From a virus, in UHGV virus genome UHGV-0117806: a stretch of DNA of 22,166 nt; one strand, given 5' to 3'. This document shows, in pieces, positions 5,702 to 21,470 of this stretch (position 1 is its first letter; each line of letters starts with the position of its first letter). Both the position numbers and the translations under genes were made by a program. The notes beneath the pieces are model-generated. The model was given only the letters and a program-made list of their open reading frames with translations, was not told the DNA's origin and ran no database searches.

Positions 5702-6294
5702 TAGGTAAGTACTTACCATTCAAAACGCCACTAACCAGTGATACAATCTATCCGCTTCCGGATACTTTCGGCAGCTCGACCTGATGGGTGGGGGATAGCG
5801 TCACTGGCGTCAGGTTTAAAAAAGCTCACTACCAGCGTAGAACCGGCACCGTTTAGGGGTTGGGGAAGGGGGAACCAAAGTGGGCAGAGAGAAGGGTCAC
5901 TTTATGATTGTCGAGTCTGGAGTGTTTCGAGAGGTTGAATCCAGTACTCCCCTTCATAAAGTGTGGGAAGATCTCGGTTCTGGGGTGCTGTCATCCATAA
6001 CTTCCCAAGCCTAAGCTGGCAGTAGACTTAGGTCATAACTTTTCAGGTTATGAAACGACCAGGTTGGTGAGGAAATTTTGTACTCACCTCACTGGGAGAG
6101 TATTACTTGAAAAGACAACCTCTCACTTCGTTCGAGGTGAACTTCACTCACTTCGTTCGTTCAGTTCAGGTTTTATTAAAACCTGTTCTGGGAAGTAATT
6201 TTTCTTTTCTAAAAAATTTTTAATATTTACACGCACGCGTGCGCACACGCGCGAGGGAAAAAAAATCGTCGCGGCGCGCGATTCTGGAGCCAAA

Positions 6295-6903
6295 ATGACG
6301 ACCAAGAACCCAGTCCGGCAACGCACTGGCTGCCGCACGAAGTCTAAAGCCAGATGCCAAACCCACCAGCATTCCTGTACCAATTTCAACACACCCGTAG
6401 TCGAGTTCAATCCCCAGCTCAAAACCGTAAAAGTATTCAGTGATGGCTCCTGCCTCAAAAATCCGGGCGGGCCGGGCGGTTACGGTATCGTTCTCCAGTA
6501 TCGAGGCGAAGAGCGCGAGCTTTCTGAGGGCTTCCACAGCACGACCAACAATCGGATGGAGATGATGGGCGCCCTGATTGCGCTGGAGCGTCTGAAGTAC
6601 CCCTGCAACGTGATCCTGCATTCCGACAGCCAGTATCTTAAAAACGGCATGACGCTCTGGATGAAAGGCTGGAAGCGTAACGGATGGATCACGTCTGAGA
6701 AGAAGCCAGTCAAAAACGTGGATCTCTGGAAACGTCTCGACGTGGCCGCCAGTCGTCATAATGTCCGCTGGAAGTGGGTTAAAGGCCATGCAGGTCATCG
6801 CGAGAACGAAATGTGTGACCGTCTGGCGAAGATCGCCGCCTATTCCGCAGCTGATATGCCTCACAAGCATGACATTGGGTTTTTGTCACAAAAGTATAAG
6901 TAA
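6295..6903 (+). CDS. rnhA: ribonuclease HI with about 45-aa N-terminal extension
   Basis: RNase HI catalytic-core motifs in canonical order: [40 protein letters not shown] 6286-6289 then ATG 6295; no alternative in-frame start before the core. Confidence 0.85.
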
Positions 6904-6995
6904 GTATTTACCTACTATAATAAATCAGGTATCTTATAAATCGTCAGGATGACGAAGTACCGGTTAGGTACGGTTCCAGGATGGAACGCCAAAAG

Positions 6996-7026
6996 GCGGC
7001 TGGCTTGGCCAGCCGCAACTCTTTCT
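6996..7026 (+). terminator. hairpin terminator after rnhA
   Basis: GCGGCTGGC-ttg-GCCAGCCGC (6996-7016) followed by CTCTTTCT. Confidence 0.5.
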
Positions 7027-7045
7027 GACACTGAATGGAATCCAC

Positions 7046-7546
7046 ATGGCCCGTCAAACGTCTTTCACTTCTTTCAATAAACGTCCCCGTTCAATTCGCC
7101 TGGTGCTGACCGAGCTGTTTAGTGGTCGTGTTTCCGCACGCCTTACGGAACTGGAAGAACGAGTGTTTGAACTGGAGAAGCGCATTAATGTGCAAGCTAC
7201 CGCCATAGCTAATCAGGGCACGACAGTAGGCATGGAGAAGGTGCGTAATAGCGTCGCTTCTCGTGTGTTGCGTGAAACCCGGACACACAAGAACAGTTCT
7301 CATGGAAAATTTTCAACGAAATCGACTGAAGTCAATGGCCTACGGAGTGATTTTGGCAACTCTGGCAGCGGTTACCGTACCAGCCGGTCAGAGCCTTTTG
7401 ATGCCGGGCACAACTACTTCCACTGCCACCACAGCCTTGCAGATGACACCCCTGCCCGAACGACCTCCTGTCTCTCTGGATGGGATGCTGATGGACACGA
7501 TTCCAGCTCGACCTGCGACTCCGGATCTTCCTTCTACAGTGACTGA
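7046..7546 (+). CDS. hypothetical protein; only the first ~70 codons look protein-like
   Basis: ATG 7046 with weak SD; N-terminal part is coiled-coil-like (LTELEERVFELEKRINVQ). From about 7260 this frame becomes Ser/Gly-rich and overlaps 7302..7559 in another frame. Confidence 0.25.
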   Translation: MARQTSFTSFNKRPRSIRLVLTELFSGRVSARLTELEERVFELEKRINVQATAIANQGTTVGMEKVRNSVASRVLRETRTHKNSSHGKFSTKSTEVNGLRSDFGNSGSGYRTSRSEPFDAGHNYFHCHHSLADDTPARTTSCLSGWDADGHDSSSTCDSGSSFYSD

Positions 7547-7779: not shown

Positions 7780-8739
7780 TCACTCCGGCGCATCCAGCCA
7801 ATTATTAATGGCGTCTATTATTAAGTGTATATCTTCATGGTGATACAGATAAACGTCCAGTTTTTTGGCTGCTTGTCTGGCGTGAGGGGTAAACTCGCTG
7901 TTGCTGACTACTATTGCGAGGGAGCAATCGTAGAACTGTTTCGCGGAAAATGCTTCCTGAATAGCTTTGTTGCCTACTTTAGACTGGTAGTGTTTGCACT
8001 GAACAGCCATTCGAACTTCTCTATAGGTTACAAGGATATCCAGACCGTGATCGCCGCTGCCCTTAGTTACTTGGGTGTCGGATCCATACTTCATAAACTC
8101 CCCAGCGACAAAATGCTCATATTCGTGCCCGGTCAGTAGCGAAGTGTACTCAGGTAATTCAGGTTCTGGTGTATTGTCTACCACCGTCATAATGTGATTT
8201 ATTGCGCAGCGATCAAATTGTTCAGGCAACTGGAATTTAAAGTAAACTGGCCGCCCCCAGGCATTCTTGTCCTCCGACTCTGCCAACCAAAGGTTGTTGA
8301 GCCGGCCTGTGTTCTCTTCGATCCAATCGTAAACTTTCTCTTTTACTACCTTGTCATAAAAGTAGTCTACTTCATCAAACCACTTGTCAAAGTTCCAGAC
8401 CCCGTATTCATCCTGTGTTGTGAGTGTTTTTTCTTTTCTTTTCAAAGTGGTGAGATGCATTTCATAGAACTGAGGTAAAACTTTTATGAGTAGGTATGAA
8501 GTGAAGGCGCTTTGAATAAGCTTCTCTTTGGCTGACTTATAGTAAAAATCGTTACGATCGAACGCGCCGTTTTGCGTGATGTAGCTTCTAACTTCCATAT
8601 TTCGAAAAATGATATTGCGTGTTTTTTCCCATGCTTCATGTAGATCATTTTCAGCAACGAAGCTCATGACTTTCTGATAATGAGACTCCAAGCCCTCCCG
8701 GGCCTTAGTTTCTTCCGTTTTGAAAAGATTACCAAACAT
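7780..8739 (-). CDS. Mrr-like PD-(D/E)xK restriction-endonuclease-fold protein with unrecognised ~200-aa N-terminal domain
   Basis: C-terminal ~110 aa match the Mrr_cat pattern: GHEYEHFVAGEF…GSGDHGLDILV…VQCKHY…AIVVSNSEFTPHARQAA. N-terminal domain has no motif I recognise. Convergent with 7046-7744. Confidence 0.85.
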   Translation of the reverse strand: MFGNLFKTEETKAREGLESHYQKVMSFVAENDLHEAWEKTRNIIFRNMEVRSYITQNGAFDRNDFYYKSAKEKLIQSAFTSYLLIKVLPQFYEMHLTTLKRKEKTLTTQDEYGVWNFDKWFDEVDYFYDKVVKEKVYDWIEENTGRLNNLWLAESEDKNAWGRPVYFKFQLPEQFDRCAINHIMTVVDNTPEPELPEYTSLLTGHEYEHFVAGEFMKYGSDTQVTKGSGDHGLDILVTYREVRMAVQCKHYQSKVGNKAIQEAFSAKQFYDCSLAIVVSNSEFTPHARQAAKKLDVYLYHHEDIHLIIDAINNWLDAPE

Positions 8740-21036: not shown

Positions 21037-21470
21037 CGGAATCGCGCCAGAAATTGCGTAGCGGCGCTGGGGTAGCGCTGGTGGGGTTTCAGCCCCTGGG
21101 CCATCCAGATAGCTTTCGCTATGTGATTATGTGAATCCGTGGGTAAATCACTGTAAGCGCGTACACGTTGCCCAACGTGGCAATCATATGCGAGCGGATA
21201 CAAAACAACACAAAGAGCCGATCCGCGCCGACAAATAAACGCGGATCACATAGCAAGACTAAAAGCCAATGATTAACCATACTCTATAGCGCAATATAAC
21301 GCGTTTTAAGCGCGTTAATGTGTTAAGTAATGGGTATGTACTGACAAGGATATAAAAGCGCGTCTATGGCGTTATTTTGGTGCTTATTTTTATGTTGTTG
21401 GAGCGAGTTAAAGACAATAAAAAACGCGCCAATGATGGCGCGTTATGGTGGGAGTATTGGAAACGAAAAA

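Follow-up and report, generated by a model that had tools for sequence, protein, structure and literature searches.

The DNA analyzed here (the window) is a stretch of 22,166 nucleotides from the virus genome UHGV-0117806, and this work deals with its positions 5,702 to 6,903, where a gene coding for ribonuclease HI (RNase HI, rnhA) is preceded by a strictly alternating pyrimidine/purine tract and, further upstream, by a large structured element that is a candidate non-coding RNA (ncRNA). The region 5900–7100 was 95.8% identical to the Salmonella phage SSU5 and 99% identical to non-mobilizable IncFIB plasmids of E. coli (~108 kb), and it matched 686 plasmid records, mostly of Klebsiella, Escherichia, Enterobacter and Salmonella, including pHCM2 of Typhi. 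Because of these matches to SSU5, the IncFIB plasmids and pHCM2, we take the window to be part of a phage-plasmid of the SSU5/pHCM2 type. Such phage-plasmids are common and bear resistance and defence cargo. In SSU5, rnhA sits within the DNA-metabolism region, and this phage encodes a replication set of its own (DnaB-like helicase, primase, ligase, polymerase, SSB, exonucleases and NrdAB). The comparisons drew on 35 distinct versions of the gene start and the DNA upstream of it, taken from phage records, plasmids, IMG/VR contigs and assemblies; the tract was surveyed in 45 related loci, and the reading frame in more than 40 loci with an intact rnhA. The literature search, which did not cover one 2026 preprint of possible relevance, found no description of the tract or of the upstream RNA, and the interest of the locus lies mostly in these two rather than in the RNase HI itself.

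The open reading frame (ORF) at 6295–6903 on the + strand codes for 202 amino acids (aa) from an ATG at 6295. Pfam RNase_H (PF00075) matched aa 44–182 with E = 2e-45 and 154.7 bits (cut-off 25.8), covering positions 3–140 of the 141 in the profile. The residues D50, E89, D111, D175 and H165 (D10/E48/D70/D134 and H124 of the E. coli enzyme) are invariant in our alignments A3 and A5. An earlier note on this DNA, made from the sequence alone, had described the RNase HI core as complete, and the nearly full profile and the presence of all the catalytic residues bear this out. In the AlphaFold2 model the core has a predicted local distance difference test score (pLDDT) of 85–96, with strands and helices in the order expected of the RNase H fold. 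The RNase HI chains in the PDB (best E ~1e-64 to 2e-64) begin to align only at aa 41–42, and the core shares 58% identity with E. coli RNase HI. By every defining feature that can be checked computationally, this is an ordinary RNase HI of an SSU5/pHCM2-type phage-plasmid. With the E. coli-type enzymes (rnhA; PF00075; PDB 2RN2/1RNH and relatives) it shares the D-E-D-H-D catalytic residues, the predicted fold and the basic protrusion region. Unlike them, it has 41 extra N-terminal residues covered by no solved chain and 5–10 extra residues at the C-terminus, and it comes from a phage-plasmid gene that is silent in the lysogen. From its family and context, it would remove RNA primers and R-loops during phage DNA replication.

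Upstream of the gene we found the most conserved DNA within the ~3.4 kb compared, an element of ~450 nt (5754–6200) on which the earlier note was silent. Its positions 5800–6150 maintained 95–99% identity across lineages, versus ~85% for the flanking coding sequences, and the core is conserved in phage-plasmids of Escherichia, Klebsiella, Salmonella, Enterobacter, Cronobacter and Kluyvera. In front of it, the -10 pattern TAnnAT (5742–5747) is invariant in all clades, and its surroundings are not (columns T3, A4, A7 and T8 of alignment A4). The 5' stem-loop (helix 1) has four of its seven pairs changed on both sides (e.g., CG:16, AU:8, UA:7, UG:4), and the consensus structure of the 35 sequences comprises 131 pairs, with 99.3% of the cells paired. 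Double-sided changes were detected at 16 pairs, against 8.7 ± 1.2 in shuffles (0 out of 500) and 2–6 in slid controls. Because 14 pairs are predominantly G-U and the + strand folds better than the minus strand (-177 versus -149 kcal/mol), the RNA would be the one read from the + strand. The core contains a G-rich block (5856–5872), direct repeats of CTCACTTCGTTCG at 6122 and 6147, and a 3' hairpin (6160–6192). There are also two invariant copies of UGGGAAG (5964–5970 and 6189–6195), the 3' one followed by AA and a U-rich run, both complementary to a single invariant CUUCCCA (6001–6007). It is possible that they form alternative, mutually exclusive helices of the attenuator type, a pairing for which the invariance of all these sequences leaves no covariation to judge by.

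No Rfam 15 family reached the gathering threshold in the window, and a sensitive scan (E <= 10) returned only mir-375 (E = 2.2) and SNORD22 (E = 5.8), both chance hits. A search of the element for tRNA and tmRNA found none, nhmmer gave no more distant homologues of the RNA in 98 other loci, and a scan of genome contigs added only Kluyvera and Buttiauxella. That the element could be coding was rejected, the 44-aa ORF inside it (annotated as the hypothetical protein CYRAN_81) being frameshifted or stopped in five clades. The stretch 5754–6200 is thus put forward as a candidate new ncRNA or leader, structured, transcribed separately and outside every described family. It resembles the large ncRNAs and cis leaders of phages and plasmids in Rfam 15 (GOLLD, ROOL, P1 c4 and the antitermination RNAs of the put/EAR type) in its size, conservation and covarying helices, as well as in its location on a mobile element and its expression from a prophage. 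However, it matches none of the Rfam families and is restricted to phage-plasmids of the SSU5_pHCM2, pSLy3 and pKpn types. In a contig of Buttiauxella gaviniae (L104:5025-6188), a 387-aa metallophosphoesterase-like ORF continues in frame into the element, whose first ~100 nt it replaces, and ends in the same 44 residues as the spurious ORF; the element there seems to be degraded and the junction recombinant. Two loci with RNase HI proteins 49–62% identical (L045:905-1485 and L017:1765-2476) keep the order of a 74-aa gene, a long non-coding gap and rnhA. Their gap, of 580–710 nt, has a sequence different from the RNA of the window and no Rfam match; the two gaps share a significant 49-nt motif, TTAAATT..GAGGAACCTATACGAG.AAG..CTTTCCAC.AGAA.GA, and may hold another RNA in the same slot.

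Expression can be followed in a relative, the phage-plasmid Cyrano. In E. coli LF82 carrying it and grown in LB, the element reached ~117 fragments per kilobase per million (fpkm), against 8.4 for rnhA and 9.5 for the upstream gene (PMC9928086, S1 Table), i.e., it was ~12–14-fold above its neighbors and ~14-fold above rnhA. CYRAN_81 was listed in the same work as a "moron," 12-fold above background (PMC9928086, Table 1). In the Cyrano lysogen, therefore, the element is expressed while rnhA is silent, and the transcript would have to be ended or destabilized between ~6015 and 6295. A function of the RNA and the tract, be it in replication priming, immunity or control of read-through, would bear on the maintenance of the element and on its switch to lytic growth.

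Table 1. Features of the ncRNA-rnhA module, in coordinates of the window.
Feature	Position	Strand	Basis or remarks
14-bp palindrome GGTAAGTACTTACC, extended form ATAGGTAAGTACTTACCTAT	5704–5717		Left edge of the ncRNA-rnhA module
Sigma-70-like promoter, TTCAAA-17 nt-TG-n-TACAAT	5719–5747	+	Promoter scan
5' stem-loop of the ncRNA	5754–5775	+	Letters wholly different between clades, pairing always kept
Near-invariant structured core of the candidate ncRNA	5776–6199	+	Identity, covariation, transcription in the Cyrano lysogen
Variable spacer, T-rich and then A/T-rich	6200–6227		Alignment A4; 26 of 28 variable columns include transversions
Alternating pyrimidine/purine tract (mostly C-purine), 26 nt, TACACGCACGCGTGCGCACACGCGCG	6228–6253		Strict alternation, recomputed
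Predicted stem-loop	6238–6280	+	3' half of the tract (6238–6250) pairs with the GC box (6271–6280)
Shine-Dalgarno sequence GGAG	6286–6289	+	5 nt ahead of ATG 6295; GGAG kept in all clades
N-terminal extension, aa 1–41	6295–6417	+	Basic, predicted disordered; ends kept (MTTK.P... / ...TPVVEFNPQ), middle variable
RNase HI catalytic core, aa 42–202, and stop codon	6418–6903	+	Pfam PF00075; catalytic residues D50, E89, D111, H165, D175
Second copy of the palindrome	6899–6912		Overlaps the rnhA stop codon, followed by TATAAT (6914–6919); right edge of the module

The alternating tract lies in the interval between the RNA and the gene. The strict alternation over 26 nt that had been claimed for it was confirmed: it is the only run of at least 13 nt in the 22-kb window (the next longest has 12 nt, at 21157), and 300 shuffles that preserved the dinucleotides gave longest runs of 14.5 nt on average and of 23 nt at most, so that none reached 26. 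The other features described in the earlier note, a 12-nt perfect palindrome inside the tract (CGCACGCGTGCG at 6232–6243), a second GC cluster (TCGCG-GCG-CGCGA, at 6269–6281) and AT-rich surroundings (the flank 6196–6227), are all present. At this position an alternating run of 16–29 nt was found in 45 out of 45 related loci; the alternation covers only 14–18 nt in pHCM2 and two variants lacking rnhA. Of its 26 columns 15 are variable, 13 of them by transition only, versus 68:56 in the ncRNA core (p = 0.02), although aligning alternating runs in phase forces transitions and what this test really shows is a drift of the letters under a maintained alternation of similar length. The tract hardly varies at its 3' end (CACGCGCG and then AGG), and its pyrimidines on the + strand are nearly all C, making the minus strand (Y-G)n, where Y is a pyrimidine. 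Two clades have tracts that are not palindromic, L043 (CACACG three times and then CGCG) and L013. A survey of other phage RNase H loci (190 kb) gave no GC-type alternating run of at least 15 nt, and 100 kb of SSU5 contain the tract only once, which argues against a repeated operator. A cos site seems improbable, the tract being ~25 kb from the terminase genes in SSU5.

The slot occupied by rnhA is a hotspot for cargo. In Klebsiella plasmids (L124:4690-6302, L125, L072 and L048) a JukAB defence pair is inserted after codon ~12 of rnhA (PADLOC JukA, E = 1e-65). In an Enterobacter plasmid, betT and a DUF2254 gene replace rnhA, and contigs of Kluyvera and Buttiauxella have other genes in the slot, some in the opposite strand. 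The slot variants also include L123:4842-8181 and L116:5153-6762, and two unknown minus-strand genes are among the replacements. All these variants with rnhA missing or disrupted retain the upstream element, the tract, the GAGG and the A-run; three of them share TCGCCCATCGTAATGTCTTCAATGTGCCA after the A-run and then diverge. A recombination breakpoint at the tract was considered and rejected, as the junctions are found after the A-run or inside rnhA at codon ~12. Since the tract is kept when rnhA is replaced, it belongs with the upstream element and, in the loci compared, travels with this RNA and not with rnhA. Its designation as the promoter context of rnhA finds no support, for this reason and also because rnhA is silent in the lysogen in which the upstream element is transcribed. 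The repeated overwriting of the slot by cargo indicates as well that rnhA is dispensable, at least for plasmid maintenance.

In a + strand transcript, the 3' half of the tract is predicted to pair with the GC box downstream, forming a stem-loop of ~-20 kcal/mol just 5' of the Shine-Dalgarno (SD) sequence of rnhA. The loop would contain GAGGG (6253–6257), the A-run (6258–6265) and UCGU, and the variable length of the A-run fits its placement in a loop. The helix appears in RNAalifold, joining columns 526–538 with 570–579, and in the minimum free energy (MFE) folds of nine clades. In the E. coli clade (11 sequences) two of its pairs persist as G-U wobbles, as would suit an RNA of the + strand. 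The reading that we prefer, with a probability of about 0.5, joins an ordinary RNase HI carrying a basic tail (see below) with a tract that is a boundary element between an RNA expressed in lysogeny and an rnhA silent in lysogeny. The conserved block is ordered as promoter, 5' hairpin, ~450-nt structured RNA, A/T spacer, (C-R)n tract (R being a purine), GAGG and A-run. Tract, GAGG, A-run and GC box would form an RNA stem-loop, possibly with a structure at the DNA level too, marking the boundary between the RNA and rnhA. This stem-loop might act by pausing, termination or processing, or it might govern how accessible the SD, 5 nt further on, is. What we observe is conservation, potential for pairing and unequal expression, and from these we infer the mechanism.

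Several points weigh against this reading. The helix between tract and GC box has no double-sided compensatory changes, only the two that preserve wobble pairs, both in a single clade, and the support for it is for that reason modest. It is weak in L043 and L013, leaves the alternation in the 5' half of the tract unexplained, and loses its GC-box arm in the variants without rnhA, though short CGCG pairings stay. No intrinsic terminator of the + strand was predicted between the RNA and rnhA (the scan gave none between 5511 and 6995). The expression data come from one relative, the E. coli phage Cyrano (83% identical), and not from the window itself, and the source does not state the strandedness of the RNA-seq. 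As to the protein, the role of its tail is purely inferred, and the ratio of nonsynonymous to synonymous substitution rates (dN/dS) in it is high enough for a tolerated appendage.

The alternation could have its significance at the DNA level. In E. coli plasmids, (CG)n tracts adopt the Z form, and in vitro they can be a block to RNA polymerase. The tract of the window, with 26 nt of uninterrupted CG/CA-rich alternation, has the sequence expected of a Z-DNA-forming tract, and it might be an element sensitive to supercoiling, whose flip to the Z form blocks or modulates the passage of RNA polymerase into rnhA or buffers supercoiling. If this were true, one would expect different levels of expression in the supercoiled plasmid and during lytic replication. 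It is the alternation, rather than the sequence or the dyad, that is kept in all clades, L043 and L013 with their non-palindromic tracts among them, and the tract has no second copy in the SSU5 sequence. The threshold of the B-to-Z transition, with the energy parameters of Z-Hunt and of Peck & Wang, was estimated at a superhelical density (sigma) of ~-0.035 to -0.04 for all variants (~-0.035 for the tract of the window). By this estimate the transition is physically plausible, though not guaranteed in vivo. The threshold, however, exceeds the values of unconstrained superhelicity that are usually given for E. coli, and the tract is located downstream of an active transcription unit, where positive and not negative supercoils accumulate. 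The short alternation in pHCM2 and in the two variants without rnhA also speaks against a Z-DNA function, the wobble-preserving changes in the helix with the GC box favor a constraint at the RNA level, and slippage alone would preserve alternation without any selection. Taken together, we regard a Z-DNA element as possible but unlikely.

The earlier note had called the tract prone to both Z-DNA and cruciforms. The first part stands as a statement about its sequence, in which alternation is conserved. The second does not: the dyad is lost in L043 and L013, and the hairpins are no better than shuffled sequences (z-scores of -0.84, 0.18, 0.01 and -0.86), that of L043 reaching only -3.6 kcal/mol. 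From these comparisons, the conserved property of the tract is its alternation and not the palindrome. Like the alternating (CG)n/(CA)n Z-DNA tracts of bacterial plasmids, engineered or natural, that Peck and Wang (1985) and Rahmouni and Wells (1989) reportedly described, it has 24–26 bp of CG/CA alternation and a computed threshold near plasmid superhelical densities. It differs from them in being natural, conserved, single-copy and located in an intergenic region of a phage-plasmid, in being Z-prone by sequence alone, and in that part of it is predicted to pair in RNA with a GC box downstream. As a Z-prone sequence that is conserved in a mobile element of bacteria, it would offer a rare test case from nature. 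In four unrelated viral contigs from IMG/VR (L138, L139, L157 and L175) we found the motif (CG)n-CACGCGCG-AGGGAAAAA with 14–17 nt of alternation in AT-rich intergenic DNA. One copy is 16–22 nt from a contig end, just 5' of a Terminase_4 small subunit gene, and another is 5' of a NusG-like gene; about 20 chance matches to the 17-mer of this motif are expected, and coincidence is possible.

A simpler explanation would be that the tract is a tolerated microsatellite of (CG/CA)n di- or hexanucleotides maintained by slippage, in which case only the GAGG, the A-run and the GC box would matter, if any of them does. Its 15 variable columns make it far more variable than the ncRNA core, and its length changes in units of 2, 6 or 9–12 nt, with three CACACG units in L043 and a deletion between repeats in pHCM2. 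Besides, alternating runs aligned in phase show only transitions by construction. What makes this rather unlikely in our opinion is the persistence of a GC-rich run of at least 16 nt at exactly the same place in loci where the rnhA protein has fallen to 66% identity and the A/T spacer is scrambled. The near invariance of the 3' end CACGCGCGAGG is not what would be expected of a microsatellite either, nor is the absence of any comparable run in the 100 kb of SSU5 or the 190 kb of other phage loci.

The only site that the terminator scan reported between 5511 and 6995 was on the minus strand (6281..6269), and it brings in a different role for the same block, as tandem minus-strand terminators that shield the ncRNA gene from antisense transcription. 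The first would be made by the GC box (6281–6269) followed by T8, and the second by self-pairing of the (Y-G)n strand via G-C and G-U pairs, which the nearly exclusive use of C among the + strand pyrimidines of the tract would permit. The A-run, a U-run on the minus strand, has 5–10 nt in all clades. A source of antisense transcription might be minus-strand cargo such as the Mrr-like gene at 7780–8739, and some of the variants without rnhA do carry minus-strand genes at this place. However, in the minus-strand folds the U-run is mostly in the loop of a larger helix and not after a hairpin, conservation of the GC-box hairpin does not extend to the Klebsiella and E. coli clades, and the G-U wobble changes that fit the + strand would be A-C mismatches on the minus strand. 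This makes a shield of this kind very unlikely, and we retain the boundary between the RNA and rnhA as the preferred role of the block.

The vicinity of a long structured RNA and an RNase H gene brings to mind the primed origin of ColE1, in which, as reportedly described by Itoh and Tomizawa in 1980, priming involves RNA II and RNase H. By analogy, the ~500-nt RNA would be a pre-primer, the (C-R)n tract would form a persistent RNA:DNA hybrid, and the phage or host RNase HI would cut at the rA-run to leave the 3'-OH for the leading strand. The likeness comprises a structured transcript of about that length running into a GC-rich segment and an A-run, with RNase H nearby. From the -10 element to the A-run there are ~505 nt, the RNA combines strong structure and conservation with a G-rich block, the conserved block of the relatives without rnhA ends exactly at the A-run and TCG, and the RNase HI gene follows in most lineages. 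The transition sequence of ColE1, which we take to be GGAAAAACGCC, would also resemble GGGAAAAAAAATCGTCGC. Unlike ColE1, though, the window has no sequence similarity to it, Rfam finding neither RNAI nor any other family, and no antisense partner of the RNA I type, the promoter scan giving no antisense promoter over the 5' part. These elements already have a RepA/IncFIB replicon and a phage primase and helicase, other replication systems than that of ColE1, and among the matches listed there is no record of less than 49 kb. The GC skew of SSU5 has no inflection at 79 kb, a test that is uninformative about origins, and a U-rich stretch and hairpins precede the tract. An origin of this type is highly improbable.

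More broadly, it is quite unlikely, though worth considering, that the whole block 5742–6268 is a single device tied to RNase HI. In one version it would be the ColE1-like pre-primer, the adjacent RNase HI cutting the GC-rich hybrid at the rA-run and holding the R-loop with the aid of its basic tail, and SSU5-type elements would thereby have an RNA-primed origin, lytic or auxiliary. In the other it would be a giant cis leader or attenuator gating read-through into rnhA, in which the two UGGGAAG copies competing for CUUCCCA, along with a tract that is Z-prone and forms hairpins, would keep the plasmid state apart from lytic growth.

The palindromes at the two edges of the module bear on this question of read-through. 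The palindrome GGTAAGTAYTTACC (14–20 bp) is found at six sites of the window (198, 4703, 5704, 6899, 11831 and 18625), with 0.13 expected. SSU5 (L126/L127) has ~10 sites, most of which coincide with the ends of annotated genes or lie close to them, and after several of them comes a -10-like TATAAT or TATGAT. A regulator might bind to this palindrome, or it might mark the boundaries of transcription units. There is no copy between the RNA and rnhA, and this, with the copies flanking the module, is consistent with the RNA and rnhA being one unit and rnhA depending on read-through.

Going back to the protein, the N-terminal extension, put at ~45 residues in the earlier note, proved real and is present in every homologue of the lineage, its length being ~41 residues, given that the PDB chains align from aa 41–42. 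That there is no alternative start holds for the window: codons 2–49 contain no ATG, GTG, TTG, CTG or ATH, i.e., no codon capable of initiation between ATG 6295 and D50, and the frame upstream of the ATG is closed by a TAA at 6196. The combination of ATGACGAC and the GGAG of the SD is kept in all 35 distinct upstream versions. In the loci with an intact gene, rnhA stays open at 195–202 aa, the differences in length being due to in-frame indels within the extension. The A-run upstream of the ATG has 5–10 nt among relatives and varies even at 98–99% identity, which points to slippage. As its length varies, the upstream frame shifts between relatives, and nothing 5' of ATG 6295 can be coding; the same variation accounts for the conflicting start codons in public annotations of rnhA. 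The longer annotations, such as the 215-aa forms starting inside the tract ("MCARAR...") and the 254-aa call in SSU5, are start-codon artefacts.

The extension evolves very differently from the core, with a dN/dS of 0.25–0.73 versus 0.02–0.08 and a nucleotide identity of 67–70% versus 82–93%. What is conserved is the MTTK.P start, the junction with the core and the net charge, which is +6 to +9 in every clade. In the AlphaFold2 model aa 1–32 have pLDDT < 50 and lack secondary structure. We consider the extension a translated, lineage-specific, basic tail that is predicted to be disordered, in which selection appears to hold the charge and the two ends but not the sequence. It might be a non-specific electrostatic tether to nucleic acid, or possibly to a partner in the replisome. 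More distant relatives (P0092, P0099, P0101 and L045, at 49–66% identity) have Lys/Arg-rich extensions of 26–37 aa with an F[ND]PxLK junction, and chromosomal RNase HI proteins begin at the core.

The opposite view, that the extension is an artefact (untranslated read-through or a wrong start) or else a zinc module of Cys and His, is hardly credible. There are 157-aa database entries that start at the core (P0085, P0087 and P0089). They are, however, 24–78 nt from contig ends and cut inside the gene, and their GTG start exists only in the E. coli clade, being GTA in the window. The earlier note had proposed aligning homologues to see if the extension is conserved, and the extension turned up in every homologue of the lineage, none of which starts at the core over a closed upstream frame. 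An untranslated origin can be discarded from the conserved ATG and SD, the frame maintained through in-frame indels and the lack of any other start before D50. The description as rich in Cys, His and Arg is correct for the composition in the window (3 Cys, 2 His and 7 Lys + Arg), and it is from these 3 Cys and 2 His that a zinc module could be suspected, but it is not a trait of the family. C21 is replaced by Y and C28 by R even in relatives 98–99% identical, the extension has no Cys at all in the E. coli (Cyrano), Klebsiella (pJN2-26), L043 and L013 clades, and no Pfam domain was found on aa 1–43 at E <= 0.1. The candidate zinc-binding module was therefore rejected because its ligands are not conserved. 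A hybrid-binding domain (HBD, or dsRHbd; PF01693) was rejected too, since no second Pfam family is matched and aa 1–32 have such low pLDDT values. As in the type 1 RNases H with an N-terminal HBD (eukaryotic RNase H1, Bacillus halodurans and Thermotoga), there is an N-terminal appendage on a type 1 core that plausibly raises the affinity for nucleic acids. Unlike them, the tail has neither the fold nor the signature of the HBD and conserves only its charge, so that the resemblance is one of presumed function and not of family membership. A disordered basic tail would be a modest addition to the known ways by which type 1 RNases H gain affinity for their substrate.

A distant clade (L017:2477-3004, L018 and L016:218-733), which lacks the alternating tract, has a second, degenerate RNase_H-like ORF of 171–175 aa with a weak Pfam hit just 5' of rnhA and overlapping it. 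Downstream of the module, the minus strand of the window at 7780–8739 codes for a 319-aa protein with a C-terminal Mrr_cat restriction endonuclease domain (Pfam E = 2e-21; PADLOC ZorD-nuclease/PDC-S02-like). This gene is on the strand opposite to its neighbors, SSU5 does not have it at the same position, and it is probably defence cargo.

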